A program made the position numbers and the translations under genes. The notes under the pieces are model-generated. The model was not told the DNA's origin. It searched no databases and saw only the letters and a program-made list of their open reading frames with translations. A DNA stretch of 32,000 bases, taken from contig LYOS01000004.1 of the NCBI GenBank assembly GCA_001766815.1, positions 1 to 32,000 on the forward strand, written 5' to 3'. This DNA is from Candidatus Syntropharchaeum caldarium. GTDB lineage: Archaea; Halobacteriota; Syntropharchaeia; Syntropharchaeales; Syntropharchaeaceae. The first letter of the stretch is position 1, and every line of letters starts with the position of its first letter. This document shows, piece by piece, positions 6,975-30,833 of this stretch.

Positions 6975-7312
6975 ATTCTCACCCTGCTTCTTAAATAACG
7001 AATTTCACGCCTCAAATCCTCCATCTCATCGAGGAGGTTGAGAATTATCTCAATCCCGATAAGATTAACACCAAGATCTCTTCTCAACCGATAGATCTTT
7101 TTCAATCTCATGATCGTATCATTTGAGAAGTATGGCTTATCAAATAATTCAACTGCTGGCGTTATCAGTCCAATCTCGCGAAATCTGAGGATCAAATCCG
7201 GGTGTAGAGAACAGATCTCGGCGAGATCATCGATTGATAGGAGACCTTCTTTCATCAATTCAATATATAGAGGAGATAGTGTCAGATCCCCCTTCTTCTG
7301 CACTCGCATCAT
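6971..7312 (-). CDS. MerR-superfamily small protein resembling chaperone modulator CbpM / HspR-type heat-shock regulator
   Basis: 113 aa. The N-terminal HTH-like segment is [28 protein letters not shown]. The C-terminal [45 protein letters not shown] parallels the CbpM pattern (R-L-R-x-D/E-L...G-I...L-L-D...L...LR). It shares 4-nt overlaps with both dnaJ and clpB. Confidence 0.7.
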
Positions 7313-8247
7313 CGATTGAGCCTCCTGAAGAGTTCTTCTCTCGGGTTCTCGGGGTGAAGTTCACCCAGCTTCCTGAAGAGTTCTTTACTCTTTTTATCTA
7401 TACGCTTAGGAATCACAATCTTGAGCTTGACGTACTGATCTCCGCGTCCACCGCCCTTTTTGTTAAGCCCTTTTCCCTTGAGACGAAGTTTCTTCCCGCT
7501 CTGGCTCATTGGTGGGATCTTCATACTCACCCTGCCATCAATCGTCGGAACGTCTATCGTTGTGCCCAGTACCGCTTCCCATGGCATTATTGGAACTTCA
7601 ACCGTAACTTCATCGCCGTCAACCTCAAAAACAGGGTGTGGTGCAATCTTGATCCTCAGGTATAGATCTCCAGCTTGCCCACCACCTATTCCTGGTTCGC
7701 CCTGGCCAGAAAGCCTGATCTTTGTCCCATCACGCACACCTTTCGGGATATTTACCTCAAGCTGCTTTGATCCCACTGTAATGAGCCGTTTTCCACCATT
7801 ATGTGCAACCTCAAGCGGGATCTCGACTTCTGCCTGAAGATCTTTGCCCTTCGTGGACCAGGTAGCTCCCCTTGCTGTTCTTTGAGTTTTCCTACCGAAT
7901 AGTGTCTCGAAGAAGTCGCTGAAACCACCAAGATCCTCCATTCCGCCAACGTTCCTGAATTCAAAGTGAATGCCGCCTGTATCAAATCCCGGTGGCGTCT
8001 TGAACTCCATGCCACTCTTCCAGTTTGAACCAAGCTGGTCGTACATCTTCCGCTTCTTAGGATCGCTCAGAACCTCGTAAGCCTCGTTTATATCCTTGAA
8101 CTTCTCTTCTGCCCAGCTTTTTTTATCTTCAGGGTGGAGATCGGGGTGATACTTCCTGGCAAGTTTTTTATACGCCTTCTTTATCTCATCCTCTGAAGCA
8201 CCCCGCTTTAACCCAAGAATTTTGTAGTAGTCTTTATACTCGGTCAT
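7309..8247 (-). CDS. dnaJ: DnaJ-family co-chaperone, class II / CbpA-type (J domain, G/F-rich linker, two C-terminal beta domains, no zinc-finger)
   Basis: 312 aa. The J domain is [31 protein letters not shown]. No CxxCxGxG repeats occur anywhere in the protein. The C-terminal substrate-binding domain repeats are present. Confidence 0.9.
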
Positions 8248-8738
8248 GTCTGCTCATCATCTTGCTCATCATCTATATCCATTGCCACCTCAACCTTTGC
8301 AGGACGTAAGACTTTCTCGCCTATGAGATAGCCGCGCTGAAATTCCTTTGTGATCGTATGAGGAGGGTGATCGGAGGCTGGTGTCGTTGATATCGCATCA
8401 TGGAAGATCGGGTCAAAGACTTCGCCCACTGACTCGAATGGTCTGACCTCAAACTCAGCTAATGCTTTTAACAACCCCTCATAGATCGCTCTAAACCCTT
8501 CGAGGATGGGGTTGCTCTTATCATCCGATTCAAACGCCCTCTCAAAGTCATCCAGCACATTCAGAATCTTCAGGATAACTTCTTCTCTCCCCAGTTCGCG
8601 ATTCCTCACTCGATCCTTTTCTACCCGTTTTTTGTAGTTATCAAAGTCTGCAAGTGCCCGAAGATACTTATCGTTCAATTCATCGAGCTCATTCTGGAGA
8701 TTTTCAAGCTCTTCCTTCAGTTCTTCAGACACGCCCAT
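8244..8738 (-). CDS. grpE: Nucleotide exchange factor GrpE
   Basis: 164 aa. The N-terminal helix carries [17 protein letters not shown]. The C-terminal beta domain reads [10 protein letters not shown]...[14 protein letters not shown]. Confidence 0.93.
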
Positions 8739-8743
8739 CTAAA

Positions 8744-10642
8744 TCACTTCTCCTCGAATTCAGCATCAACAACATCATCCTCTTCAGATCCACCACCTGT
8801 TGCACCAGCTTCTTCTCCAGCTTCTGCCTGCTGAGCCGCCTGCTGCTGGTATGCCCTCTCTGAGATCGCGTATGCCGCCTGCTGGAGATCGTTCATGAGC
8901 GTCCTGATCTGTTCGATATCTGCCTCCTCTTTGATTGCTTTTCGTATATCCTCTATAAGCTGCTCTGCACGTGCCTTCTCATGGACCGGGATGTTCTCAC
9001 CAAGCTCTTTGATCTGGCGTTCAACCTGATAGGCGAGGCTGTCTGCCTGATTTCGCGTCTCAATCTCTTCTCGCCTCTTTTTATCCTCTGCTGCGTGCTG
9101 TTCAGCATCACGAATCATCCGGTCTATCTCTTCCTTTGACATCGTCGTTGAGCCTGTGATCGTTATTGCCTGTTCCTTTCCTGTCGCCATATCCTTTGCA
9201 CTGACGTTCACAATTCCGTTGGCATCGATATCAAATGTCACCTCGATCTGGGGCACTCCACGGGGTGCAGGTGGAATCCCTTCGAGCCTGAACCTTCCGA
9301 GCGATCGGTTATCCTTTGCAAGTTCTCGCTCACCCTGGAGGACGTTTATATCAACTGCAGTCTGGTTATCCTCGGCAGTCGAGAAGATCTGGCTCTTACG
9401 CGTTGGTATCGTTGTATTTCGCTCGATGAGCTTTGTTGTAACACCACCAAGTGTCTCAATACCAAGTGAGAGCGGAGTAACATCGAGAAGAACAACGTCT
9501 TTAACCTCTCCAGCAAGGACTCCGGCCTGGATCGCAGCGCCGAGTGCCACAACCTCGTCAGGGTTAACGCTCTGATTCGGTTCTTTTCCGCCTAATAGCC
9601 GCTTTACAAGGTTTTGCACCGCAGGAATTCTTGTAGAACCACCAACAAGAATAATCTCATCGATCTCTCTCTCTGTCAGGTTTGCATCAGATAACGCCTG
9701 CTTCACAGGACCCACGCAACGCTCAACAAGGTCTGCGGTTAAATCTTCAAACTTCGCCCGTGTGAGCTTCATCTCAAGATGCTTCGGACCTGTTGCATCT
9801 GCTGTCACGAATGGCAGGCTTATCGTTGTCTCAACTGTGGATGATAACTCGATCTTTGCCTTCTCTGCAGCCTCGGTCAATCGCTGGAGAGATTGCAGGT
9901 CATCTCTTAAGTCAATCCCATTCTCACGTTTGAACTCATCCGCAAGCCAGTTCACGATCCGCTTGTCGAAATCATCGCCACCAAGATGCGTATCACCGCT
10001 GGTTGACTTGACCTCAAAAACACCCTCTCCAACTTCAAGGATCGAGACATCGAACGTCCCACCACCGAGATCGAATACAAGTATCGTCTCACTCTCTTTC
10101 TTATCAAGCCCATAGGCAAGTGATGCTGCGGTCGGCTCATTGATAATTCTTAATACGTTCAACCCAGCGATCTTGCCTGCATCCTTTGTCGCCTGACGCT
10201 GGGCATCATTGAAATACGCGGGTACAGTGATAACCGCATCTGTGACCTTCTCGCCGAGATACTTCGATGCATCATCGACCATCTTTCGAAGTACCATAGC
10301 AGAGATCTCTTCTGGAGCATATAGCTTATCCTCCACCTTTATTCTGACGTTGTCATCCGGTCCTGCCACAACCTCATAAGGAACAAGCTTCTTCTCCTCT
10401 ACAACCTCACTGTACTTTCTTCCAATAAATCGTTTGATTGAGTAGATCGTATTCTTTGAATTGAGTATCGCCTGTCGCTTTGCAAGCTGCCCAACAAGTC
10501 GCTCACCCGTCTTTGTGAATGCCACAACAGATGGTGTTGTTCTCCCCCCTTCTGCATTAACGATCACAGTTGGGTTTCCACCCTCCATGATTGCCATACA
10601 GGAGTTTGTAGTACCTAAATCAATTCCAACAGTCTTTCCCAT
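8744..10642 (-). CDS. dnaK: Hsp70 chaperone DnaK
   Basis: 632 aa. Hsp70 signatures: [19 protein letters not shown] and [13 protein letters not shown]. The C-terminal tail is acidic. A GGAGGT motif lies 7 nt upstream of the ATG. Confidence 0.98.
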
Positions 10643-10744: not shown

Positions 10745-11212
10745 TTACTTAACCTCGATCTTTTTGACTTCTTCCGCTGCGACCTTTGGCATTGTGACCT
10801 CAAGTACACCATTCTCGAACTTCGCTGTTATTGCATCCTTATCAACCGATGCTGGAAGCGGCACAGCCCGGTAATACTTTGCATAGTGTCGCTCTCGCCT
10901 GATATAACCCTCCTCTTTTACTTCCTCTTCCCCTTTTCGCTCTGCACTGATCTCGATCATATCATCCTTCATATTGACCGAGATATCGCTCTTATCAACG
11001 CCAGGCACGTCTGCCCTGAGCACAAGCGTATCTCCCTTATCGATCAGGTCGATTGATGGTACCCTTGAAATGGGAGCAACCTCCTTGCCTGTGCTCTCAG
11101 GTAACAGTAACCCCCCTGCAGTTTGCATCTCGCCCATAAGATCATTCATCCATTCTTCCATCCGCTTTAATTCATAGAATGGATCAAATATGTGTCGTCT
11201 TCGCCACATCAT
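10745..11212 (-). CDS. hsp20: Small heat-shock protein, Hsp20/alpha-crystallin family
   Basis: 155 aa. The alpha-crystallin domain runs DLIDKGDTLVLRADVPGVDKSDISVNMKDDMIEISAERK...AKFENGVLEVTMPK. A GAGGTGAT Shine-Dalgarno motif lies directly upstream. Confidence 0.92.
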   Translation of the reverse strand: MMWRRRHIFDPFYELKRMEEWMNDLMGEMQTAGGLLLPESTGKEVAPISRVPSIDLIDKGDTLVLRADVPGVDKSDISVNMKDDMIEISAERKGEEEVKEEGYIRRERHYAKYYRAVPLPASVDKDAITAKFENGVLEVTMPKVAAEEVKKIEVK

Positions 11213-11301: not shown

Positions 11302-13179
11302 TCATAGACTCCCCACAAACCTCGGACGCCTCGATAAAAGCACAGGAAGCGATAATGGCTTATACGGCATCTCACCCTGTTCAACCTCAAGCATCTTCTT
11401 AAGCTCATCCACCGTCATCTTTACCCGCTTTGGCTTCTTCAAGCTCGATTCTTTCCTCACCGTTACCGTTAGAACACCTTCCTCGCACTCACGTTCTCCG
11501 ATAACCACAACATAAGGCACCCACTCACGCCCTGCAGATCTAACCTTCTTTCCAACGGTCTCATCACGATCATCGATATCAACCCTGAAAGGAAGACTGG
11601 ATGCGACTTCAACCGCGTGATCAAGCTGTTGATCTGATACGGGTATGATCCTCACCTGTGTCGGCGAGAGCCAGAATGGAAGCATCGGGAGCTTGACACC
11701 ACTTTCTGTATCCATACTCGCTCTCTCAAGCAGCGCATAGATGCACCGTTCAATCGCACCAGATGGCGAGCAGTGAAGGATTGTTGGTTCAACCTTTGCA
11801 TTCTCAGAATCGATGTAGGTTATACCATATCGACCGGCATTCTCAACGTCAATCTGGACGGTGGAGAGTGCGCTTGCTTTACCCAGGCAATCGATGAAGT
11901 TAAACTCAAACTTCAGTACAAAGTAGAAGAACCTTTCATCCCAGATCTCGACAAGCACAGGTTTATCGAGCACAGCTGCAAGTCCATTTATGAAATCCCT
12001 GTTCTCATCATAGAAGCCCTGTGTGAATCTTATCCCAACCTCATAGTCCGATGATTCAAGCCCGATCTCAGCTAAAACGTCTATGCACATCCTGTACTGA
12101 TCCTCGAACTCACGGATAGCCTCATCCATATCCTTACAGAGCGTGTGCATATCCGGCATCGTGAAGCTCCTGAGCCTTCTCAGTCCCACAAGTTCACCAC
12201 GCTGTTCCCTTCTGAAGCTGTATCGTGTAAGCTCGATCATCTTCAGTGGAAGATTCCTGTAAGAAATGCTCATATCGTGGTTCATCAAAAACTGCCCAAA
12301 ACATGCTGCAAAGCGTAAAAATAGCTCTTTATCTTTTTTATCCCCTATAACTCTATACTGTCGTGCTGGAAATCGCTCAAGATACTTTTTAAGGGTTGGA
12401 TGATTCGAATCATACATGATAGGTGTCTCAACCTCCATCGCACCACTCTTAACCGATCTGGAGAGTACAAGTTCCTCAAGAAGCCCTTTTATGAGTCGTC
12501 CGTTTGGGTAGTATCTCAGATTACCTGGATCAGACCCTTCCTCATAGTCTGCAAGCTCAAGTCGCCTCATAAGCTCAACATGCGGTGGAGGTATATCGAC
12601 AACTCTGTTTTTTGAGATCTCATAGTCAAAAAAGGCTTTTAAGCCATCATAACCACTGAAATCAAATTTTTCTGGCTCAAAGATATCACCATCTGGGGTT
12701 AATACCATGATCCTCGATACAGCTTTCTCTTCTGCTTCAAGTGCACCTGTAAGCTTCTCCACAGGTCTTATCGTCCTTGATAGCTCTGAGAGCGGGTGTC
12801 CCTTGCATCTGATCGAGAATGCCTTGTACCATCCAAAAGGAGCTCGCATAAGATCGAAATCATCTTTAAGTATCTCTTCCATCCTTTTAAGAGCATAAAC
12901 AGCGGCATCAGGGCTTGAAAGGCTGGAACTTAGATGTGCATACGGATAAAGAACGATTCTATCTGTATTGACCTTCTCTGAAACTTCTTTGATCTCAGAA
13001 ACCGCATCATCAACAACAGCATCGATATCTCCTTCATCTTCATTCTCGACCGCGATAAAGACCGCAAGCACATCATCCATCCTGCCAGACTTTTGTGCAT
13101 CTTCGATCTCTTCTGCAACTTTTGTCTGTCGCTTAACCTCATACTCAAGATAATCCGAGTGTACAAACATTAACTGCAT
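11302..13179 (-). CDS. thrS: Threonine--tRNA ligase, archaeal type with N-terminal DTD-like editing domain
   Basis: The protein begins [15 protein letters not shown], a typical archaeal ThrRS start, followed by a class-II catalytic core and a C-terminal anticodon-binding domain. I chose the ATG at 13179, which sits behind GGAGGT. The TTG-initiated extension to 13242 would lie inside the RFC gene. Confidence 0.94.
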
Positions 13180-13180
13180 C

Positions 13181-14191
13181 TTAAACCTCCGAGATCTTTG
13201 ATAGGAGTGCCTCAAGCTGTATCCGCTCATTCGCACCCTCAATGATTCTCATATCAAAATCAGCCATGATCAGGATAACCTCCTCAAGTTGTTTACTGAG
13301 GGGACGGTCACCTGATGTGATTCTGTCATGTATCATATCAATCACCTCGTATCCTGTAAATCCACTATCTGCGGTCAGCGCCTCGATCATCTTTGCAACC
13401 TCTACAAAATCACCACTGAGACTGAGTGATAGCAGCTCATCGATTTTATCATCCCTGATCTCTGGAAGCTTACCTGCGAGTGAATAATATTGTAGCGCAT
13501 AGATCGCTTGCCCCAGGCTCCCTGATGCACGGGATATAATCGTCTGAAGTGTCTTTTCATCAAAGGTCAACCCCTCTTTTTCCATAATCTTTTTCAGGTG
13601 CTCCTCGATAAGCTCGTCCTCGATTTTGCCAAGATACAGATTCAGCGCTCGTGATCTCAATGGTGGAATAATCTTTGAAGGTCTTTTGGTTGTGAATATA
13701 AACCTGCATGTGCGATTGTATCGCTCTATCATTCTTCTTAACGCCTGCTGTGCATCGAGGGTGAGTGCATCGGCATTTCTGAAAAATATAATCTTGAAAT
13801 CGGCATCAATTGGCATCAGCGAGGCATACTCGTTTATCACCTCCTTGAATGTCTCAATAACCGGTTTATTCTTCTCATAGAAGTGCTCAAATCTCGGATC
13901 AGCCTCGAGGTATGCTTTTCCTCGATTGAAAAAGTCAGATGCATCTATCTCGGTCAGGTTATCCTCAAACCCACCTCCATAGATACCTTTTGCAATCAGA
14001 TACACGAGCGTGCTCTTTCCCACACCCTCTCGTCCATGAAATAGCAGGTTCGGGATAGTTCCTGCCTCAACATACGACCTGATCCTGTTCACAACCGCCG
14101 ATTGCCCCAGAACCTCATCGAAGGATTTGGGTCTGTATTTATCAATCCAGACCTCACTCAAACTGAATCCCCTCCAGATCCCGCACACCAT
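13181..14191 (-). CDS. Replication factor C small-subunit paralog (divergent; Walker B degenerate)
   Basis: Motifs: RFC box [19 protein letters not shown]; P-loop GREGVGKS; [11 protein letters not shown]; SRA in place of SRC. The position of the canonical DEAD box reads FRNAD. An alternative start is the TTG at 14161, 9 nt after GGAGG, which would shorten the overlap with radB. Confidence 0.85.
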
Positions 14192-14879
14192 CTGCTTTCA
14201 GCATAAACTCACACGACTCTCCCTCAGGAAGTGATCTGTGCTTTCTTATTATCGCTCTTCGCTTTCCCCCACCGATCTTTTCAAGCTCCAGAACTGTTTT
14301 TGATGCGTATTCAAATATCAAACCACCGATGGGACACAGTCTATCGTTATCGATATCTGTATAGACCTGATTTGTTACAACAACCGCAAGATCATCCTTT
14401 CTTGCAAGCTCGAGGAGTGAGATCATCTGTGATCCAAGCTGACGCCTCAGCATCTGTCCTCGCTCGTCATCAAGCTCAAGGCGGTAGAACATCGTTGCAG
14501 AATCGAGCACCACGAGACCGATATTTCCTCCAAGTTTCTTAAGATCTTCGATCGCGCTCTGCTGTTCGAGGAAATTGACTGGTTCAAAGATCATGACCTC
14601 ACGCGCGATCTTCCTGTAATCCTCTCCTGCAATCTGCTTGAACCGTTCAGGCGATAAACCTTCTGTATCGATGTAAACCGCCTTTCTACCTCCTTTAACG
14701 CACTCGACAACAAGCTGGATACAGATATTTGTCTTACCGGAGCCTGGTTCACCATAGATCTGCGATACCGCTCCTGCCTCAAATCCACCACCGAGAAGAC
14801 GATCCAGGCTCCTGCACCCTGTCTGTAACCGCTCAATCACCGCCTCAAGCTCAGAAGAAGATGATGGCTCCATTTTCAC
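14154..14879 (-). CDS. radB: DNA repair and recombination protein RadB (RadA/Rad51 paralog lacking the N-terminal HhH domain)
   Basis: 241 aa. Walker A is GEPGSGKT and Walker B is LVVLDS. The short length and the absence of an N-terminal domain fit RadB. It shares an ATGA overlap with fni. Confidence 0.88.
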   Translation of the reverse strand: MKMEPSSSSELEAVIERLQTGCRSLDRLLGGGFEAGAVSQIYGEPGSGKTNICIQLVVECVKGGRKAVYIDTEGLSPERFKQIAGEDYRKIAREVMIFEPVNFLEQQSAIEDLKKLGGNIGLVVLDSATMFYRLELDDERGQMLRRQLGSQMISLLELARKDDLAVVVTNQVYTDIDNDRLCPIGGLIFEYASKTVLELEKIGGGKRRAIIRKHRSLPEGESCEFMLKADGVRDLEGIQFE

Positions 14880-15958
14880 CTTATAAACTTTGTATCAAAC
14901 CCTCGCTCGCTCAGGATCTCGCGAGTAAGACCCTTCAGAACAACATCTGCAAACCCAAGATCTGAAACCGTCTTTGAGCCTGTGAGAAACATCGCGACCC
15001 TGAGCTCCTCGAGCACCTTGCTTATATGATCCACAACCGCATCCATACCTCGAAGTGCTGGTTCAATCAGGGGCAAACCCATTCCACAGACCGTTGCACC
15101 GAGTGCGATCGACTTTGCTATATCAATCCCGCTTCGTATACCTCCTGTTGCAACCACAGGAATGCCAAAGTCCCTGCACTCAACGATCGAGACGGTTGTC
15201 GGTATTCCCCAATCCCAAAAAGCCTCTCCAAGCCGCTCTTTTATCCTGTTATCCTCTGCTCTCGCGCGATAAACCTCGATACCTGCCCAGCTTGTTCCCC
15301 CAACGCCTCCAACATCGATCGCAGCCACACCTGCCTGATAGAGCATATATCCAACTTTATGCGAGATACCAGCACCTGTCTCCTTGACGATCACAGGTAT
15401 ATCAAGTTTCGTGCATATCCTGTTGATCGCTGTGATGCACCCAACTGCATTGACATCCCCTTCTGGCTGTATCGCCTCCTGCAAGAAGTTCAGGTGTATC
15501 GCTACCGCATCGGCATCGATCATATCCACAACCCGTTTCACACCATCGATACCGTACTTTGCAAGCTGAGGAGCTCCGATATTTGCATATACAAACGCAT
15601 TCGGGGCATAATCCCTCACAACCCTGAACGAAGCCTCCTGAGCTGGATCTTCGAGTGCTGCACGCTGGCTTCCAACGCCGATGCCGATGCCGAGCTTTTC
15701 TGCTGCCATTGATAGGTTGCGATTGACCTCCATTGTATCAGGATGACCACCTGTCATCGACGTGATCAGAAGCGGGCATCGGAGTTCTCTTCCAAGAAAT
15801 CTCGTTGTAAGGTCGATCTCGGCCATATCGATCTCAGGAAGAGCGTTGTGTATCAGAAGAACATCCTCGAAAGAGTGTGTGCGGTGTTCTACATCCTCCT
15901 CTGCACATAACCTCAGATGATCGAGCTTTCGCTTTGATGTTTCATTCAATCTTAGCAC
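14876..15958 (-). CDS. fni: Isopentenyl-diphosphate delta-isomerase, type 2 (FMN-dependent)
   Basis: 360 aa TIM-barrel protein. KRKLDHLRLC...FEDVLLIHNALPE...PLLITSMTGG...ETGAGIS...GGVGGTSWA is typical of IDI-2. Confidence 0.93.
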   Translation of the reverse strand: MLRLNETSKRKLDHLRLCAEEDVEHRTHSFEDVLLIHNALPEIDMAEIDLTTRFLGRELRCPLLITSMTGGHPDTMEVNRNLSMAAEKLGIGIGVGSQRAALEDPAQEASFRVVRDYAPNAFVYANIGAPQLAKYGIDGVKRVVDMIDADAVAIHLNFLQEAIQPEGDVNAVGCITAINRICTKLDIPVIVKETGAGISHKVGYMLYQAGVAAIDVGGVGGTSWAGIEVYRARAEDNRIKERLGEAFWDWGIPTTVSIVECRDFGIPVVATGGIRSGIDIAKSIALGATVCGMGLPLIEPALRGMDAVVDHISKVLEELRVAMFLTGSKTVSDLGFADVVLKGLTREILSERGFDTKFIR

Positions 15959-19456: not shown

Positions 19457-20590
19457 TCATCGAGATTTTTCTTTCTCACCGTTTCCTCCAAGATATCTGA
19501 TTCCCATCTCAAGAAGATCTTTTCGCTCTCCATCTTCAAGGTTGCAACTTGCCATATAACGCTCAAACTCTCTTTTTATCGATTTGAACGAGACATCACC
19601 TGCGTATGTTCCACCATTATCCCTGATGACATTCCATTTTATCTCAAAGTGGACAGCATCAGCTGTTAATCGTTTTATCTCATCGAAATCGATCGTGTTA
19701 TAGATCGCAACTGGAATATTCTCCACCTTAAGCCGTACGATCTTACCCGCTGGATCGCAGTCTGCAATTCGCCCTCTTATCAGATCCATCACCTCGCCTG
19801 CGGTTAAACCATCGCAACGAAGAGGCCTGATATCGACCATATCCCGTATATCAAGTTTTTTGAAGTGAACAACATGGTCGCCACTTAGATCAAGCTCTAA
19901 AAATCCCTTTGGATTTCCTGCATCGGTGAAAGATAGCCGCTCGGTTGAGCCTGAATAGTACGCATTTCCCCCGACATGAACCGCCCTGTGATAGTGCCCG
20001 AGTGCGATGTAGTCAAAACCTTCTCCAAACTCATCATACTCGATGATCTCCTCGTTGAAGAGACCTTCTTTGAATACCGAAACCCCAGAGACTCCACAAT
20101 GGAGCATCAAAATATTATAGTCGAAGCTTCGATCGATTTTAACCTTCTCAAGCTCACTTCGCATCCCATCCGGTGAATGTGGTATCGCATGAATCGCAAG
20201 TCCCAGATCATCAAAGCGGATCAGCTCATATTTACCCTCGTAGACTGGATATACATTATCAATGTGTTCAAATAGCCTGAAGACACTGCCTGTCTCACGC
20301 AGTCTCGGAGTCTCGTGATTTCCAGATATTACAACAAACGGGATCTCTTCATCTGACAGTTTGAGAAGAAGATCGAGCACATTGGATATTGCACGATTTG
20401 TAGGTCTTACAGCATCAAAAAGATCACCTGCATGTAATATAATATCAGGATGAGTCTCTATCGCGTAATCCACAAACTGTTTGAACGCATCGTAAACGTC
20501 AACCTCCCGCTGGTTTAGCCCTGACCCGCTCTCAACCTTCCTGTAGGCTGAGTACCCGATGTGTGTATCAGCAAGGTGCAGTAGTTTCAT
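19457..20590 (-). CDS. mre11: Mre11/SbcD-family DNA double-strand-break nuclease (calcineurin-like metallophosphoesterase)
   Basis: 377 aa. The ordered phosphoesterase motifs are LHLADTHIG, HAGDLFD, ISGNHE, MLHCGV and GHYH, with Mre11-like spacing and a C-terminal capping-type domain. No Rad50/SbcC ORF is adjacent. Confidence 0.85.
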   Translation of the reverse strand: MKLLHLADTHIGYSAYRKVESGSGLNQREVDVYDAFKQFVDYAIETHPDIILHAGDLFDAVRPTNRAISNVLDLLLKLSDEEIPFVVISGNHETPRLRETGSVFRLFEHIDNVYPVYEGKYELIRFDDLGLAIHAIPHSPDGMRSELEKVKIDRSFDYNILMLHCGVSGVSVFKEGLFNEEIIEYDEFGEGFDYIALGHYHRAVHVGGNAYYSGSTERLSFTDAGNPKGFLELDLSGDHVVHFKKLDIRDMVDIRPLRCDGLTAGEVMDLIRGRIADCDPAGKIVRLKVENIPVAIYNTIDFDEIKRLTADAVHFEIKWNVIRDNGGTYAGDVSFKSIKREFERYMASCNLEDGERKDLLEMGIRYLGGNGEKEKSR

Positions 20591-21660
20591 GGCTCTCTCA
20601 GGTAATTCTCCACGTGCATTGGATCGAATCGATCGATCGATGCCATCGACTTTATGAAGTTGAAGAGTTTCAATCTAACCTCGGGGTCAAGATTTGGATA
20701 CCATATCGGACTTGCAACTACCAGACCTCTGAACAGGTAAAACGGAGGGATGAATTCGAGTATATCGTAATCCTCGGTCTTCTCAAGATAGTTTTCCCAG
20801 AATATATCAAAAAGTTCCTTGAACGCGCCGTCGAAGGAACCGCGCTGGGTGAGTGCGAAGAAGAGATAGTTGATCGTGATCGAGGACAGATCATCTGCAG
20901 CCTCACCCCATGCACCACGCGATCGATCAAGCATCGTGAAGGATGTACCCTCCCTGAAAAGAATATTCCATGGGTGGAAATCCCCGTGAACCGCACATAA
21001 TCGCTCACATCTATCCTTGATTCTCCACCGCCACCTTACAGCCCCTTTCTCGATTATTTCAAGTTCTTTCCATGAGATAAACTCAAGATTGGGTGGATAG
21101 CTGTCCGTAAGCCCCATTATGCACTCACCATGTCCAACAAGTTCCCTTATTCGCCTCGTATACAGTGATTCCATCCCTTTCTCAGGTTTTATAGCATGAA
21201 TGCGGGCAAGATAGGAGGATAAAGCGTACGCACGTTCGCGATCAAGATCTTCAAGCTCTCCACGCCTGGAAATCCTGTTTAGATCCAGAACGTACTCAGA
21301 ACCCTCAACCTCTTCCATCAGCAGAAAGTACTCATTAGCATCTCTCACAGATTTCATTGCTCCATCTGCTGTGAAATATCCAATATCGACCGATTTTACA
21401 TGCTCTGGCAGGCTGTTGAAGGTGTGGTATTGTTCCATCAAAACCCTTGCTCGATCTTCCATGTGTTCGTGCCCGAATGAGTCACCACGCATCGTTGATA
21501 GCACGAAACCTTTCTTCACACCCCCGATCTCAACCTCGATCTTCAGTGGCTTGCCGTACCCAAAACCCTTGAGTTCATCCAGACCTCCAATATCTCCTGT
21601 GCTCACAAGCTTTGCATCTTTGCCAAACAACTCCCGTATATACGCTTCAACTTTCATCAT
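20587..21660 (-). CDS. Phosphotransferase of the aminoglycoside-phosphotransferase/choline-kinase (APH/ChoK, protein-kinase-like) fold; substrate unknown
   Basis: The catalytic loop is HGDFHPWNILF, followed by the metal-binding MLDRSRGAWGEAADDL. I chose the ATG-ATG at 21660/21657 ([13 protein letters not shown]). The track ORF begins at an upstream GTG (21810) deep inside the preceding gene. It shares an ATGA overlap with mre11. Confidence 0.75.
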   Translation of the reverse strand: MMKVEAYIRELFGKDAKLVSTGDIGGLDELKGFGYGKPLKIEVEIGGVKKGFVLSTMRGDSFGHEHMEDRARVLMEQYHTFNSLPEHVKSVDIGYFTADGAMKSVRDANEYFLLMEEVEGSEYVLDLNRISRRGELEDLDRERAYALSSYLARIHAIKPEKGMESLYTRRIRELVGHGECIMGLTDSYPPNLEFISWKELEIIEKGAVRWRWRIKDRCERLCAVHGDFHPWNILFREGTSFTMLDRSRGAWGEAADDLSSITINYLFFALTQRGSFDGAFKELFDIFWENYLEKTEDYDILEFIPPFYLFRGLVVASPIWYPNLDPEVRLKLFNFIKSMASIDRFDPMHVENYLREP

Positions 21661-22846
21661 CCTTAAGCCTCGATGGGTAGATTCGCCTGTACTCAACAAT
21701 TTCTTCAAAAGTTTTAATAGAATTTGCAACCGTATCATCGATTTGTTTCGTATCAAGAAGCTTGACAAGCTTGTTTGAGTTGAAAACTGATACCTCCTCC
21801 CATATTCCACTGCTTTTGAGCAGATTTACAAGTTCATTGTACCGCTCTTCATCCCTGGACTTCGATGGATATTCAGGCTTTTTTGATATCTTGATCCTCA
21901 ACCTGTACTCACTGCCATTTATGACATCTACCCCTTCTCTTAGTGCATATCTATATATCGCATCTTTCAACCTCGATTCTTCCTCTTCAAGCTTTTTCTT
22001 TTGGTTTTTAAGCTCGATGAATCTGTTCACAAGTCTGACACCATCCTCCTCAATAAAGGCATCTGGTGGAAGATCAGCTACCTTGAATGCATGTTTCTTT
22101 GAGGGGCAAAGGTCCTGGTATCCGCACCAGTTGCAGAGGGCAGATTCTTTTGGTTCGAAGCTTTCAGCTGTCTCGATCTCGTAAATCTTTTTTACAATCT
22201 CCTCTTTGAGCATTTCAAGTGTAATTCTGTTCCTTTTTGATCGGAACTCCTTGTCAAACTTGAGGTAGTGCCATACAAGGTCAACATCCGAGATATCATT
22301 CCACAGCGGCTCGATTCCAAGCTGATACAATGCAAGTTGCTTATCCTGATCGATTTCCGATTGGTATGGCAGAGTGGATGATGTTTTGTAGTCATGAATC
22401 TCATACGTCCCATTTTCTCGCTGATCCACACGATCAATAAATCCAATGAACTTGAACTCAGAGTCGGGGAGTGGTACTTCTATTCGCATCTCAAGTGCGA
22501 TCGTCTTTGCCTGCTCAAATGGATAATACCGTCTGTAATAGCCCTCAAGACAGTTTCTGCCGATTTCTTTATAATTATCAGATGTGTAGTCTTTTCTGAT
22601 TACAAGAACACCATCATGGAACTTCTTCTCCCAGTTTACATCGTAAAAATCAATTAGTTCATCGAGCTGGGGGTCTTTTGCCATCATCTTATCCCTGTAG
22701 AGCTTTTCAAGACTCTCATGAACTCTTGAACCCATGAACGCTTCTATACCTTCTGTATCAGGCTTTATCCGATCAATATATCGAAGTTTGAACTGAAATG
22801 GACAGTTTTCATACGCACCAATCCTGGAGTAGGAGTATGTCTTCAA
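21647..22846 (-). CDS. Cas4/AddB-like PD-(D/E)XK nuclease with 4Fe-4S Cys signature and ~150-aa C-terminal coiled-coil extension
   Basis: 399 aa. There is an N-terminal Cys (YENCPFQF). Nuclease motifs are GFIDRVD and EIHDYKT (D...DxK) plus QLALYQL (QhxxY). The C-terminal [10 protein letters not shown] is a CX2CX5C cluster. The TTG start overlaps the upstream stop and sits 4 nt after GGAGGTG. No other cas genes and no CRISPR array are present. Confidence 0.85.
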
Positions 22847-23976
22847 TTCACACCTCCCAGAATCTTTCGCACGATCTCATCCCCAACCTCTGATGTCTTA
22901 CTGTTACCCCCAAGATCATAAGTTCTAACTTTCCCTTCTTTCAGAACATCTTTTATTCCAGTTATAATTCTCTCTGCTGCCCTCACTTCACCCAGTTGTT
23001 CAATGAGCATCGCACCTGCCCATATCGTTGCAATCGGATTTACGACATTCTTTCCTGCATACTTTGGAGCAGATCCATGAATCGGCTCGAACATCGATGT
23101 TCCATCGGGATTTATATTCCCACCAGGTGCAAGTCCAAGCCCACCCTGAATCATCGCACCAAGATCCGTGATGATATCTCCAAAGAGATTCGGTGCAACA
23201 ACAACCCTGTACCACTCAGGGTTCTTCACAAACCACATCGTCGTCGCATCAACGAAGTTGAACTCGGTCTCAATCGAAGGATAGCGTGCTGCAACATCGA
23301 GAAAAACATCCCTCCAGAGCCCATACATCTGAGAGAGGACGTTTGCTTTATCCACCCCTGTCACACGTTCCATACCTTTTCGAGCTGCAAGACTGAAGGC
23401 ATAATCGATGACGCGCTCTGCCCCTTCCTTTGAGATCACACCAATCTGGTATGCGATCTCTTCGCTGCTTGTCTCGATGTCGAGATCGAACCGAACCTGA
23501 TAGAGTTCTCTCAGGAGTTCAAGCTGCACCTTTGAATTCCTGCCTTTGAACCTGTCACCGATACCGATATAGAAATCCTCCGTATTCTCACGCACAACAA
23601 CGAAATCGATCTCTTCGGGCCCTTTATCCTTAATTGGAGTCCAAACACCTTCCAGAAGTTTTATTGGTCTGAGATTAACATACTGGTCAAAGTAAAATCT
23701 CAGTTTAAGTAAAATTCCAAGTTCAAGAATCCCTGGCTCAACTCTTGGATCACCAAGTGAGCCGAGATATATTGCCTTATACTGCCCAAGCTCTTTGAGT
23801 TCATCTTCACTTATTAACTGTCCACTTTTAAGGTAGCGATCTGCACCAATATCATAAGGTATCCACTCGACATCAAATCCCTCTACCTCTGCCACAGCTT
23901 CAATCACCTTTCTGCCCTCATTGATGATCTCTGGACCGATACCATCACCAGGAATTACCGGTATCTTATACATCAT
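22843..23976 (-). CDS. Isocitrate/isopropylmalate dehydrogenase-family oxidative decarboxylase (closest in layout to tartrate/D-malate/3-isopropylmalate dehydrogenases)
   Basis: 377 aa. Motifs: [69 protein letters not shown]. The exact substrate cannot be assigned from sequence alone. Confidence 0.88.
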
Positions 23977-24021
23977 GTTTAACCCTTCGGTGGATGAGTG
24001 TATAAATATTAACCCTCGACC

Positions 24022-24780
24022 TCACCGTTTTCTTTTCTGCTTCAACAACTCGGAAACCCTCTGGAATGACTTTTCATCAACAATCCCTTCATGCCCACCA
24101 TCAAAAAGATTATCACCCCACTTAACCCTACCGAGGTAGGTTTTGTTTGTCAGGATTCTGTAAACCAGTGATCGTGGAACATTGAATGCCCTTGAGATCT
24201 GTACTGTGCTATTTCCGCGTAAATACGCTCGATAGATATCTTTAACAATCTCGGCCTCCTCTTCAACCACAACCAGGCGTTTATCTTCAAAGCGATATCC
24301 AAATGGTGGCTTGTACTGGACATATCCATCTTTCGCCTTTTTATCCATCCCGAGAATGACTCGTTGTCGAATAATATCACGTTCAAACTCTGCAAACGCT
24401 CCGATGATATGAAACATTAACTTTCCCACGGGTGTTGTTGTATCGATCTGTTCTGTGAGGCTCACAAAATCAACATTATAACTCCTCAATTCATCGATCG
24501 TGAGTATTATATCCCTCAGTGACCTGCTCAATCTGTCAAGTTTGTAAACTAAAAGAACATCAAGAAGATTATTTTTACCATCTTCAATCAATCTTTGAAG
24601 CTGTGGACGGTTGAGTGTGCCACCACTCAAACCTGCATCCACATACTCCCCTACAATATGCCATTCGTTGAATTTGCAGTACTCCTCAAGCTTCTGTTTC
24701 TGTGCAGCGAGGCTGGCACCCGTGGATACCTGCTCTTCTGTGCTTACCCTCAGATACAATCCCACCCTTTTTTGTTCCAT
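24022..24780 (-). CDS. Serine recombinase: resolvase-type catalytic domain plus the 'recombinase' domain of large serine recombinases, but no zinc-ribbon/coiled-coil domain
   Basis: The catalytic Ser lies in VGLYLRVSTEEQ. Other catalytic-domain motifs are VYKLDRLSRS and GAFAEFERDII. The recombinase-domain region reads PPFGYR...EAEIVKDIYRAY...LTNKTYLGRVKW...HEGIVDEKSFQRV. The protein ends about 10 aa later. The ATG at 24780 is preferred over the TTG at 24801. Confidence 0.88.
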   Translation of the reverse strand: MEQKRVGLYLRVSTEEQVSTGASLAAQKQKLEEYCKFNEWHIVGEYVDAGLSGGTLNRPQLQRLIEDGKNNLLDVLLVYKLDRLSRSLRDIILTIDELRSYNVDFVSLTEQIDTTTPVGKLMFHIIGAFAEFERDIIRQRVILGMDKKAKDGYVQYKPPFGYRFEDKRLVVVEEEAEIVKDIYRAYLRGNSTVQISRAFNVPRSLVYRILTNKTYLGRVKWGDNLFDGGHEGIVDEKSFQRVSELLKQKRKR

Positions 24781-24825
24781 AAGGTTTACCTTTCGGAACA
24801 ATAAATATAGTTTTTGGCGTATTCT

Positions 24826-24975
24826 GGAAAAATATTAAAAAATAATATTTATAATATCTTAATTAATTTATATTTGATTAAATATGAATTACTACATTAA
24901 ATAAATTATAGAAAGTATCTATTATAGTATAACTAATTAGAAATAAGTTTTGTGTAATACAAAATAAAATCCTCA
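24826..24975. other. Extremely AT-rich intergenic tract (about 11% GC by hand count over 24831-24970)
   Basis: I counted 15 G/C in the 140 nt of 24831-24970, whereas the surrounding genes are mid-40s % GC by eye. The tract lies between the XPD 3' end and the recombinase 5' end. It is flanked by TATTCTGGAAAAA (24819-24831) and the imperfectly inverted AATTCCTGAGGAT (complement of ~24970-24982). Confidence 0.8.
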
Positions 24976-24991
24976 GGAATTAAGAAGAATC

Positions 24992-25013
24992 AAAAAACCG
25001 GACAGTTAAAAAA
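24992..25013 (-). terminator. Two T6 tracts downstream of XPD (terminator candidate)
   Basis: The minus strand reads CCATTTTTTAACTGTCCGGTTTTTTGATTC, beginning about 30 nt after the XPD stop. Confidence 0.35.
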
Positions 25014-25044
25014 TGGTGCATACGCCGCAGAACTCACCTGCAAA

Positions 25045-26907
25045 TTAGTCTTTCAATTTTTGATTGCTTTGATAGAAAAATTCCTTCAACATCTCCGCCC
25101 ATTCATCACTTATAATCACCCTGAAATCTGGTGGCAGACAATCGAGATATTTTTGCATACCAAAACGATCGTCCATGAGAATAATTGCCCCGCGATCTTC
25201 TTCGCTTCGGATACATCTTCCAGCAGCCTGCAGGACTTTGTTCATTGCAGGATACGTGTACCCATACAGGTGTCCACGTCCAAATTTTTTGTTATAGTAC
25301 TCAATCAATGATTTGACCTCAATCGATGGAGGACTGAGTGGGATTCCTACAATAACCACCCCATCAAGCGCATTTGCAGCGTAATCAATACCCTCTGCGA
25401 ACGAACCTCCCATAACTCCAACAAGAATGCCACCATCTTCTTCTTTAAGGTGCATCAAAAGATCATACATTCCATCTTTATCTTCCTTGCTCATCCCACG
25501 ATCCTCTCTGACAATCCGTTTCGATGATCGTAGATACTGCAGGACCGCATTCATAATCATATAGGATGGGAAAAAAACTGCAAGATTTCCTGGGATAATA
25601 TCTGCAACTGTATTCAGATTAGTGCCTATCTTTGCATACATCATTTCATCTCGCTTTGAATAGAGTGTCGTCGTCCCAGGAACCGAAAGTATAATGCGAT
25701 TCTTCTTTGGAAAAGGGGATCTGTAAGTGGCTAAAATTGACCTCTCTGCCTCGATTCCAAGTATATCTCGTATCATCTCAGGATATAGCGTTCCACTCAT
25801 GAGAATCGATGCATGAATATGGTCAAATATTCCTCTTGCAAGAATTGATGGATCAAGGAGTCGGTTTGAGATACGCGGCGTCTCTTTATTCTCAAATATC
25901 CTGACAGATGCACCTTCATTTGCAGGCCAACCTTTGAGAAAAGCTGCGAGGTGTTCAAGTGCCGAGTGATAGTTTCCGTCTTTGATGATTTTCTCTCCAC
26001 CTGCAGAGATCAGCCTGACAAACGCATCAAAGTCCAGCGGCTCGAGCTGCTCTTTTAGGATCTTATCAACTCGAACGACGAGATCATCTACCGTGAGCAT
26101 AATCTCGCCCCCCACAGGCGTTTGCTTCCCAAACGCATCAAAGATCCTGGTCATACCTCTGAGATGGTGGGTTAAACGTGCCATTTCATTTCCTTTAAGC
26201 GTTTTTGACTCCTTTATTGCATCTTTTAGATCAAAAATACTAATACTGTCGCTTAAATGGTCCCTTATACGATCCGGTAGATTGTGTGCCTCGTCAACAA
26301 TCACAATAAGCTCATCAAGCCCTTTTCCAAGCCTTGCTAATATTGTATCCTCTACAGGAGAGAAAAGATAGTTGTAATCACATACAATAACATCCGCAAC
26401 CCCGCCAAGTTCAAGTGCAGTCTTATAGGGACAGACCTCACATGCTGTTGCCAGACGAACGAGAGAATCAACATCATAGATCGTATGCATAAGATCTTCG
26501 ATGAGGCTTTTATCTTCGCCTGTAGCATACTTGCATCGATGTGCGCGTTGTTCTCTTGCGCAGAACTCATGAAATTCACCAGAAAATAACCGCTGAGCGC
26601 CACCTCTTGGACACATACTCTGCTTTGCGATGATGTCAACAACAATGATATTTCTCCCACTTACATCCTTCATGAGCCGCAGCGTATCGATCGCTATCCT
26701 GTGCTGTGACTGACGGGATGTTAGAAATAGTGTCAAAAGTCCATTGTCCATTCCATACTCGAGCGAAGCAGCAAGTGCAGCGGCCGTCTTTCCGATTCCA
26801 GTTGGTGCATGTGCAAGAAGGTGCTTACCGCTCGATATCACACGCCTTGCATCATCCAGAAATTCACTTTGACCGCTCCTGATCGTTGGAAAGGGAAACA
26901 GGTTCAT
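25045..26907 (-). CDS. xpd: XPD/Rad3-family 5'-3' DNA helicase (SF2, Fe-S cluster domain)
   Basis: Walker A is HAPTGIGKTAAAL and the DEAH box is VDEAHNL. Four Cys residues sit between motifs I and II (SMCPRGG, FCAREQRAHRCKY, CEVCPYK). VIVCDYNYLFS and the C-terminal helicase motifs (GSFAEGIDY, QAAGRCIR) are present. The ATG at 26907 is preferred over the TTG at 26910. Confidence 0.9.
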   Translation of the reverse strand: MNLFPFPTIRSGQSEFLDDARRVISSGKHLLAHAPTGIGKTAAALAASLEYGMDNGLLTLFLTSRQSQHRIAIDTLRLMKDVSGRNIIVVDIIAKQSMCPRGGAQRLFSGEFHEFCAREQRAHRCKYATGEDKSLIEDLMHTIYDVDSLVRLATACEVCPYKTALELGGVADVIVCDYNYLFSPVEDTILARLGKGLDELIVIVDEAHNLPDRIRDHLSDSISIFDLKDAIKESKTLKGNEMARLTHHLRGMTRIFDAFGKQTPVGGEIMLTVDDLVVRVDKILKEQLEPLDFDAFVRLISAGGEKIIKDGNYHSALEHLAAFLKGWPANEGASVRIFENKETPRISNRLLDPSILARGIFDHIHASILMSGTLYPEMIRDILGIEAERSILATYRSPFPKKNRIILSVPGTTTLYSKRDEMMYAKIGTNLNTVADIIPGNLAVFFPSYMIMNAVLQYLRSSKRIVREDRGMSKEDKDGMYDLLMHLKEEDGGILVGVMGGSFAEGIDYAANALDGVVIVGIPLSPPSIEVKSLIEYYNKKFGRGHLYGYTYPAMNKVLQAAGRCIRSEEDRGAIILMDDRFGMQKYLDCLPPDFRVIISDEWAEMLKEFFYQSNQKLKD

Positions 26908-26928
26908 CAACTTTCAGGAGTGCGTAGT

Positions 26929-30086: not shown

Positions 30087-30833
30087 ATGAACAGTATTGA
30101 ACAGGCACACCTCATCATCAAAGGAAGGGTACAGAAGGCAGGTTATCGTGATCATATCGATGAGATGGCGTTCAATCTTGATCTTACAGGTTATGTGAAG
30201 AATCTTCCCGATGGATCGGTTGAGGTTGTCTGTGAAGGAGAGCGAGAGAAGATCGAGCAGTTTATCGATCTGATCTGGATAAAACAGTATCCAATCTCGG
30301 TTGAGGATATAGAGGTGGATTATTCAGATGCAACAGGTGAATTCAGAGACTTTGAGATCATAAGAGAAGAGGATCTAACTGAAGCAGTCTATGAACGAAT
30401 GGATACCGCTGCCAGGTATATGCGCGAGATGAACAGGAATCTTGGTGAGAAGATCGATAAAGTCGGGGAGAAGGTTGATGCAGGAAGGGAAGAGAACAAA
30501 CAGGGATTTTCGATGCTTGGTGAGAAGATCGATGGAGTTGCCAAGAAAGTTGACATAGTTGGAGATAAAGTTGATAAAGTTGCTGAGAAGGTTGATATAG
30601 TTGCCGAGAAGGTTGACATAGTTGGAGATAAAGTTGATAAAGTTGCTGAGAAAGTTGACATAGTTGGAGATAAAGTTGATAAAGTTGCCGAGAAGGTCGG
30701 TACCGTCAAAGAGGATACGGGGGAGATACGACGTTCTCTGCATACACTCGAAGATCACATGCTGAAGTATGAAGAGTTACGTCGGGATATTCTTGAGATA
30801 AAGCAGGCTTTGAAGGAGAAGGGGATTGTTTAA
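30087..30833 (+). CDS. Acylphosphatase-like domain protein with C-terminal heptad-repeat (coiled-coil) region
   Basis: The N-terminal ~95 aa match both acylphosphatase signatures (IIKGRVQKAGYR and GYVKNLPDGSVEVVCEG). Residues 121-209 are K-[VI]-D-x-V-x-[DE] heptads. Eight consecutive heptads occupy residues 154-209. Confidence 0.75.
   Translation: MNSIEQAHLIIKGRVQKAGYRDHIDEMAFNLDLTGYVKNLPDGSVEVVCEGEREKIEQFIDLIWIKQYPISVEDIEVDYSDATGEFRDFEIIREEDLTEAVYERMDTAARYMREMNRNLGEKIDKVGEKVDAGREENKQGFSMLGEKIDGVAKKVDIVGDKVDKVAEKVDIVAEKVDIVGDKVDKVAEKVDIVGDKVDKVAEKVGTVKEDTGEIRRSLHTLEDHMLKYEELRRDILEIKQALKEKGIV
30549..30695 (+). repeat. In-frame tandem repeat: three near-identical 42-bp units plus one 21-bp unit
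   Basis: GTTGACATAGTTGGAGATAAAGTTGATAAAGTTGC(T/C)GAGAA(G/A) occurs at 30549-30590, 30612-30653 and 30654-30695. A related 21-bp unit, GTTGATATAGTTGCCGAGAAG, occupies 30591-30611. Confidence 0.92.

Follow-up and report, generated by a model that had tools for sequence, protein, structure and literature searches.

A dehydrogenase, an Fe-S nuclease, a kinase and Mre11 in one compact gene unit of Syntrophoarchaeum: probably a lineage-specific operon of convenience

Results

Four overlapping genes and a conserved TATA-like element

We analyzed a 32,000-nt stretch of Candidatus Syntropharchaeum caldarium DNA (GenBank assembly GCA_001766815.1, contig LYOS01000004.1, positions 1 to 32,000), which is called the window throughout. 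An earlier reading of the bare sequence (the original prediction) had described at 19457 to 23976 a tightly coupled unit of four genes, encoding a dehydrogenase, a nuclease, a kinase and Mre11, and had raised the possibility that they form a functional module. All four open reading frames (ORFs) were found on the minus strand where that prediction had placed them. They are listed here in the order of reading, followed by the TATA-like element upstream of the first gene.

22843 to 23976, minus strand: Iso_dh-family beta-decarboxylating dehydrogenase of the LeuB/tartrate-dehydrogenase-like subgroup (PF00180, PRK03437, matches in the PDB)
21647 to 22846, minus strand: stand-alone PD-(D/E)XK nuclease of 399 amino acids (aa) with a four-Cys Fe-S cluster (PF12705, invariant residues, AlphaFold2 model and Foldseek)
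20587 to 21660, minus strand: APH-fold (protein-kinase-like) phosphotransferase (PF01636, HGDxHPxN loop)
19457 to 20590, minus strand: Mre11 nuclease of 377 aa with all phosphoesterase motifs intact (TIGR00619, matches in the PDB, alignment)
24000 to 24010, minus strand: TATA-like element AATATTTATAC (from the sequence; kept in four Syntrophoarchaeum-lineage genomes)

Direct reading confirmed that all three junctions overlap. The TGA stop codon of the dehydrogenase gene (22845-22843) overlaps the TTG start codon of the nuclease gene (22846-22844) as TTGA, and this TTG is located, as predicted, 4 nt after a GGAGGTG (22857-22851, followed by TGAA). The kinase gene begins with an ATG at 21660, so that its first 14 nt are shared with the 3' end of the nuclease gene; the database entry for the kinase begins one ATG later, at 21657, which corresponds to an 11-nt overlap. 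The stop codon of the kinase gene and the start codon of mre11 share an ATGA (20590-20587).

The TATA-like element that had been noticed ahead of the first ATG is present as AATATTTATAC (24010-24000), separated by 23 nt from the dehydrogenase ATG (23976). Since it is kept at the same position in four Syntrophoarchaeum-lineage genomes, AATATTTATAC is the likely promoter of a four-gene transcript, and we infer, as a reasonable reading, a single promoter with a short-leader or leaderless transcript. The proposed single transcript is plausible in view of this conserved element and of the tight junctions in the four genomes. All sizeable genes of this chromosomal stretch from 26910 down to 88 are encoded on the minus strand. 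For the kinase and the nuclease, database entries of Candidatus Syntrophoarchaeum caldarius from a 221-kb contig showed 100% protein identity.

The gene order is confined to the Syntrophoarchaeum lineage

Together with the serine recombinase gene immediately upstream, the four genes form a block that is colinear in four Syntrophoarchaeum-lineage assemblies: the window and the loci L001 (Ca. S. butanivorans), L175 and L088. The nucleotide identity of L001 and L088 to the window was ~74-75%, from ~140-170 nt upstream of the recombinase gene to the end of mre11. At the junctions of the block, the spacing was between -4 and +9 nt in all four assemblies, and none of them has lost the kinase-mre11 ATGA. 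The flanks differ. In the window, the block stands between a gene for an XPD helicase and two genes for membrane or secreted proteins; in the S. butanivorans-type genomes (L001, L175), it stands between the gene for ribosomal protein L10e and HypE-HypF-HypD with an NiFe hydrogenase; in L088, it is followed by genes for a short-chain dehydrogenase and an ABC transporter.

With an aligned set of kinase homologues, the kinase gene was located in 80 genomes, each representing a species, together with as much as 10 kb of DNA to either side, and the four proteins and the window neighbors were compared by tblastn with these 80 kinase loci. The order recombinase-dehydrogenase-nuclease-kinase-Mre11 was found only in L001. 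Neither the nuclease nor Mre11 was detected within 10 kb at any of the other 79 kinase loci, even at E ≤ 1; at least 1.2 kb of DNA was available upstream in 69 of them and downstream in 70. Among the loci with neither gene was L033, from a more distant metagenome-assembled genome (MAG) labeled 'Syntrophoarchaeum sp.' In MAG25_tar_biofilm, the kinase (L053) and nuclease (L086) genes lie on separate contigs.

A metagenome scan with an Mre11 alignment yielded 80 loci, 72 of which had enough downstream DNA and 62 at least 1.2 kb upstream. The nuclease, the kinase and the dehydrogenase were absent from all 80. Likewise, no Mre11, kinase or Iso_dh gene was found near the nuclease gene at 12 loci outside the genus. 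The original prediction was right that the combination is unusual, the four-gene order being seen only in Syntrophoarchaeum-lineage genomes. Its suggestion of a functional module was not supported: the four genes are syntenic in congeneric genomes only, and not at the 79 kinase, 80 Mre11 and 12 nuclease loci. Since the four genes adjoin one another in this genus alone and each keeps other company elsewhere, the unit is probably a lineage-specific operon of convenience, made up of unrelated genes with separate housekeeping roles.

The tight packing of the unit is not exceptional for this genome. Among the 22 same-strand junctions of the whole window, about 11 to 12 overlap or leave at most 5 nt between the genes. 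The functionally unrelated genes for FMN_dh, RadB, the RFC small subunit and ThrRS (11302-15958) are joined by three consecutive overlaps; this run is a local control, and gene overlap here therefore does not imply shared function. The PdxT-Tyw1-CoaBC genes, also unrelated, show a 14-nt overlap and then a 4-nt gap, and the functionally related GrpE-DnaJ-MerR-ClpB genes show three 4-nt overlaps in succession. The latter belong to a bacterial-type chaperone string, DnaK-GrpE-DnaJ-MerR_2 (HspR-like)-ClpB (4365-10642), with mostly 4-nt overlaps and with an Hsp20 gene just upstream (10745-11212).

The unit could instead be a genus-specific pair or triplet for DNA-end processing, for which an AdnA/AddB-type 5' nuclease, gained by horizontal transfer, would have joined a rad50-unlinked Mre11. 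The two nucleases would resect ends without HerA-NurA, with the kinase possibly as a regulator and the dehydrogenase as a passenger. We consider this unlikely. It stays alive because the block is intact in four assemblies although the flanks are scrambled; the restriction of the adjacency to one genus speaks against it. Further evidence on both sides comes from the two nucleases themselves.

The mre11 gene belongs to a clade unlinked from rad50

The Mre11 family assignment was borne out. The protein scored 60 bits with PF00149 (Metallophos) and 88.1 with the sbcd subfamily model TIGR00619 (cutoff 77.65). Its scores with the Mre11_Sulfo, Mre11_Halo and Mre11_Pyroc equivalogs, which are lineage-specific models, were far under the cutoffs. 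The five phosphoesterase motifs (DxH, GD, GNHE, H, GHxH) are present, and a 17-sequence alignment shows no variation at D8, H10, D56, N91, H92, H164, H199 and H201. Matches in the PDB were the Mre11 proteins of M. jannaschii and P. furiosus. Furthermore, the protein aligns end to end with Rad50-linked orthologues. Since this alignment includes the C-terminal region, it suggests that the window Mre11 still binds Rad50, which weighs against a dedicated end-processing pair.

In the window, tblastn detected no Rad50, HerA or NurA (E ≤ 1e-3), in agreement with the original prediction, and no second Mre11; the absence of the three partners nearby favors the end-processing reading. Rad50 was directly downstream in 68 of the 72 informative metagenomic loci, several of them with HerA and NurA upstream. 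Individual homologues showed three contexts: NurA-HerA-x-Mre11-Rad50, Mre11-Rad50 and, in one case, Mre11 without Rad50.

In a neighbor-joining distance tree built from tblastn segments, the Rad50-less loci L089, L099, L110, L111 and L083/84 formed one clade with the window Mre11 and L088; loci of the sister branches carry Rad50. The neighbors of mre11 vary within this clade (DUF1464 and a GHMP kinase; PGM, DUF58 and VWA; a ParA-like gene and IlvD). Because the Rad50-less loci form one clade with such varied neighbors, the "orphan" state of mre11 is a property of the lineage, not of the four-gene unit, and the gene appears to be an ordinary mre11. Homologues labeled Methanophagales, Methanospirareceae and Methanomicrobia are ~50% identical to the window Mre11. 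On a Methanospirareceae contig (L176), mre11 follows mcrBGA and a gene for a PALP enzyme with a 1-nt gap.

These results also bear on the end-processing module that had been proposed: its Mre11 is an orthologue of Rad50-linked housekeeping Mre11 proteins, in a clade generally unlinked from rad50, and the absence of the nuclease from the 80 Mre11 loci extends to the other Rad50-unlinked clade members. No paper dealing with Mre11 in Syntrophoarchaeum was found in the literature.

The nuclease is a stand-alone Fe-S enzyme without a fixed partner

The second gene product matched PDDEXK_1 (PF12705) with an E value of 4.6e-36 (125 bits; cutoff 22). Residues C15, D138, E149, D152-Y-K154, Q170, Y174, C238, C241 and C247 are invariant in the protein and 20 homologues. 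They include the D...(D/E)xK site, the QxxxY motif and the four-Cys cluster of a PD-(D/E)XK Fe-S nuclease. In line with this, the predicted Cas4-like Fe-S nuclease with C...CX2CX5C, D..DxK and QhxxY motifs was recovered, with a weak Cas_Cas4 match. Its score with the Cas4 model TIGR00372 was 28.4 bits (cutoff 65). The lack of a CRISPR/cas context, also part of the prediction, was confirmed by the absence of cas genes and of a CRISPR array from the window, and a CRISPR-associated Cas4 was rejected on the basis of this score and this context.

Sequence searches of the PDB with the nuclease and the kinase gave no match, and fold searches were therefore used. In the AlphaFold2 model of the nuclease (predicted local distance difference test score [pLDDT] of 90), the first ~260 residues matched by Foldseek the nuclease domains of AdnA, ACE1, AddAB, Dna2, MGME1, Exo5 and Cas4. 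The last ~140 residues form an extra C-terminal domain that partly matches DUF7376.

The family comprises 4152 matches, which are stand-alone proteins of ~400 aa labeled "putative RecB family exonuclease." Most of the named matches below ~50% identity are bacterial (~45% identity over the full length), and a few archaeal MAGs carry relatives at 52-55% identity. The two nearest archaeal relatives outside the genus are encoded between a HEM4 gene and a gene for a lamin-tail-domain protein, and a further relative is surrounded by small unknown genes, with a methylase gene and a MutH-like gene close by. Three relatives of 45-48% identity (one of them named, from a Chlamydiae MAG) are in three unrelated chromosomal contexts. 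Among 2.9 million viral contigs, only three carried relatives, none of them adjoining Mre11 or the kinase, and a viral origin of the nuclease was rejected.

For the end-processing reading, these data cut both ways. The catalytic motifs are intact in both nucleases, and the fold of the Fe-S nuclease matches the end-resection enzymes AdnA, AddAB, Dna2 and Exo5. However, Mre11 accompanies the nuclease at none of the 12 loci outside the genus.

The kinase has a conserved metabolic neighborhood elsewhere

The kinase matched APH (PF01636) with an E value of 4.6e-9 (36.8 bits; cutoff 23.2), its catalytic loop HGDxHPxN is invariant, and so are H225, G226, D227, N232 and D245. Together, the profile match and the loop support the predicted APH-fold kinase. 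The family has 5976 homologues that are 52-60% identical across orders and occur in Methanoperedens, ANME-1, ANME-2, Methanosarcinales, Methanocellales, Methanoliparum, Bathyarchaeia and a few bacterial MAGs. None of the named NCBIfam kinase models matched. The predicted model was of moderate confidence (pLDDT 70), and its fold is nearer to 5-methylthioribose kinase (MtnK) and other small-molecule kinases than to protein kinases (TM score ~0.5). MtnK was considered as an identity for the protein and rejected, since no NCBIfam model or PDB sequence matched and the weak fold likeness comes only from this model.

ORF clustering and Pfam searches at the 79 other kinase loci revealed recurrent neighbors. 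A gene for S-adenosylhomocysteine (SAH) hydrolase (AdoHcyase) was directly upstream in 37 loci, and a P-loop gene of the APS_kinase-like type was directly downstream in 38; in 32 of the 79, the latter was followed by an Inositol_P (inositol-monophosphatase-family) gene. Because the usual neighbor is SAH hydrolase, a salvage role of the kinase seems consistent with its surroundings. The string SAH hydrolase-kinase-APS-kinase-like-inositol-monophosphatase-like may represent an uncharacterized salvage or nucleotide-sulfur pathway. That a kinase with such a metabolic neighborhood elsewhere stands between the two nucleases is a further argument against their joint end processing.

The dehydrogenase resembles LeuB and tartrate dehydrogenase

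The first gene product is, as predicted, an IDH-family dehydrogenase, Iso_dh/LeuB-like by profile search. It has a full-length Iso_dh fold (PF00180; E value, 6.6e-94). The LeuB equivalog PRK03437 (NCBIfam 3-isopropylmalate dehydrogenase) was passed narrowly, with 404.5 bits against a cutoff of 393, and the score with the tartrate dehydrogenase model was below the cutoff (347 versus 470). The nearest solved structures were 3FLK (P. putida tartrate dehydrogenase) and 1W0D (M. tuberculosis LeuB).

The original prediction had also raised a nuclease system linked to a metabolite. In such a system, the nucleases would be controlled by a small molecule, for whose synthesis or sensing the dehydrogenase and the kinase would be responsible. 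All that speaks for it is the co-transcription to which the overlapping junctions and the one conserved TATA-like element point. Against it, the dehydrogenase passes the LeuB equivalog model, the kinase has its own AdoHcyase/APS-kinase-like/Inositol_P neighborhood without any nuclease in dozens of genomes, and neither nuclease is fused to a sensor or effector domain. We regard such a system as extremely improbable.

A short serine recombinase travels with the unit

The serine recombinase that had been noted immediately upstream was confirmed by Pfam. Two features precede the unit:

24022 to 24801, minus strand: short serine recombinase of 259 aa with Resolvase and Recombinase domains (Pfam, NCBIfam)
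24802 to 24971, minus strand: AT-rich non-coding region upstream of the serine recombinase gene (DNA homology to L001 and L088; three-genome alignment)

The recombinase consists of the Resolvase and Recombinase domains only and has no zinc-ribbon or coiled-coil part. It is the best-conserved product of the block (85-86% aa identity in L001 and L088) and is also encoded in L175. Its gene and the ~200 nt of AT-rich DNA ahead of it form the most strongly conserved portion of the five-gene block. The gene and its upstream region are located at 24022-24971 in the window, 6648-7585 in L001, 91-1061 in L088 and 3732-4490 in L175. The three-genome alignment of the AT-rich region revealed conserved stretches such as TAACTGTCC and AATTAGTTATACT.TAATAGATACTTT; the region is probably the promoter of the recombinase gene, a site for the recombinase, or both. 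The recombinase gene is separate from the unit but always travels with it. No paper on a serine recombinase in Syntrophoarchaeum was found in the literature.

No conserved direct or inverted repeats flanking the recombinase gene or the block were found. The arms of a 22-nt inverted repeat (82% complementary), at 23808-23829 and 24994-25015, enclose the recombinase gene together with the first part of the dehydrogenase gene. An invertible or mobile segment defined by this repeat was rejected, as the arm inside the dehydrogenase gene is absent from L001 and L088. The other arm falls on a conserved upstream motif. With one arm confined to the window genome, the repeat is probably due to chance. 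An integrative element with a large serine recombinase was also rejected, given the short domains, the lack of conserved flanking repeats and a GC content like that of the surroundings.

These observations bear on the idea of a mobile or defense cassette, in which the five-gene block would be carried between chromosomal sites by the recombinase, and the nucleases would work in the upkeep of the element or in defense against viruses or plasmids. In its favor, the block is never without the recombinase gene and the upstream non-coding region, the best-conserved member is the recombinase, the flanks on both sides differ between genomes, and a fragment of an rve transposase gene lies near the block in L001. 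On the other hand, conserved flanking repeats are lacking (the single 22-nt inverted repeat is found only in the window genome), the block has the same GC content as its surroundings, and the recombinase is without the C-terminal domains of integrating large serine recombinases. Moreover, Mre11 and the kinase group with related archaea, as expected of vertically inherited core genes, and hardly any viral contigs carry members of the nuclease family. PADLOC models, compared with the four proteins and the recombinase, gave only weak Cas4 matches, all on the nuclease and none on the others, and a known defense system was rejected accordingly. A cassette of this kind is therefore very improbable.

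Also in the PADLOC results, the XPD/Rad3-type helicase encoded upstream (25045-26910) matched a 'type IV DinG' model (E value, 1e-104), with no cas genes or CRISPR array nearby; the match probably reflects the breadth of the model, not a role in defense. Elsewhere in the window, a 21/63-nt tandem repeat (30517-30694; ~7.6 copies of a 21-nt unit) was found inside a gene (30087-30833) whose product has an acylphosphatase domain and, after it, a coiled-coil-like region. Scans of the window with Rfam and for tRNAs revealed a single tRNA-Arg, far from the four-gene unit.

Discussion

The original prediction stood in part: the gene calls, the compact unit and the unusual combination were confirmed, and its end-processing, defense or mobile-element and metabolite-linked interpretations were not. 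We propose that the four-gene unit is probably an operon of convenience, which may have arisen as follows. The four genes would have been brought side by side in an ancestor of Syntrophoarchaeum. They would be transcribed together from one promoter at the conserved element at 24010-24000, and the downstream genes would be translated by coupling across the overlapping stop and start codons. Overlaps and a common promoter would leave no neutral breakpoint inside the unit, and for this reason the block would survive rearrangements of its flanks.

According to this model, the dehydrogenase would be a metabolic enzyme of the LeuB/tartrate-dehydrogenase type. The kinase would act on a small molecule; elsewhere in archaea it is part of the SAH hydrolase/APS-kinase-like/inositol-phosphatase-like string. 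The nuclease would be a stand-alone AdnA/AddB/Cas4-type Fe-S enzyme acting on DNA ends, from a family widespread in bacteria whose members have no fixed partner gene. Mre11 would be a normal archaeal Mre11 from a clade (Syntrophoarchaeum and ANME-1-like relatives) in which mre11 no longer adjoins rad50, and it presumably continues to work with a Rad50 encoded elsewhere.

Several points weigh against an operon of convenience. The block with the recombinase gene is colinear in four assemblies despite three flank contexts, perhaps because linkage is selected for and not simply because breakpoints are lacking. Each of these genomes retains the kinase-mre11 ATGA overlap. That two DNA-end nucleases would share one putative transcript is biologically suggestive. 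Furthermore, rad50 would have to be located elsewhere in these genomes, and the dehydrogenase may not be the sole LeuB. A more speculative view is that mre11, after losing its linkage to rad50, was fused into one operon with the bacterial-type AdnA/AddB-like Fe-S 5' nuclease, with the kinase as regulator. The outcome would be a compact unit for DNA-end resection that needs neither Rad50 nor HerA-NurA; selection would hold it together, and the neighboring, domesticated serine recombinase may have repositioned it. To us, this is a long shot.

The case calls for caution in compact archaeal genomes, where overlapping start and stop codons and a common promoter alone do not indicate joint function. 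Three aspects may interest specialists beyond this locus: a whole clade of alkane- and methane-oxidizing archaea in which mre11 is unlinked from rad50, a widespread family of stand-alone AdnA/AddB-like Fe-S nucleases without a studied member, and a strongly conserved APH-fold kinase whose gene is usually linked to that for SAH hydrolase.

Comparison with known systems

The dehydrogenase shares the full-length Iso_dh fold with 3-isopropylmalate dehydrogenase (1W0D) and tartrate dehydrogenase (3FLK); it is not encoded next to leuC or leuD. It is of another type than the archaeal LEU3_arch and AksF enzymes, whose models it matched with 280 and 277 bits, both under the cutoff. The kinase has the APH fold and the HGDxxxxN loop in common with MtnK, its best structural match, which was followed by fructosamine, aminoglycoside and ethanolamine kinases.

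The nuclease resembles AdnA/AddB, the Argonaute-associated ACE1 and Cas4 (SSO0001) in its PD-(D/E)XK core, the one N-terminal Cys, the CX2CX5C motif and the QxxxY motif, with Foldseek E values of 3e-11 to 5e-10 for AdnA and ACE1. It differs from them as a stand-alone protein of 400 aa with an extra C-terminal domain of ~140 aa, and it is encoded without a helicase partner, an Argonaute or cas genes nearby.

In mre11-rad50 (herA-nurA) operons, orthologues 40-53% identical to the window Mre11 are encoded directly ahead of rad50, sometimes with herA and nurA, whereas mre11 of the window and of the surrounding clade is not followed by rad50. In its motifs, length and domain order, however, the protein is like the archaeal Mre11 of M. 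jannaschii (3AV0, 4TUG) and P. furiosus (1II7).

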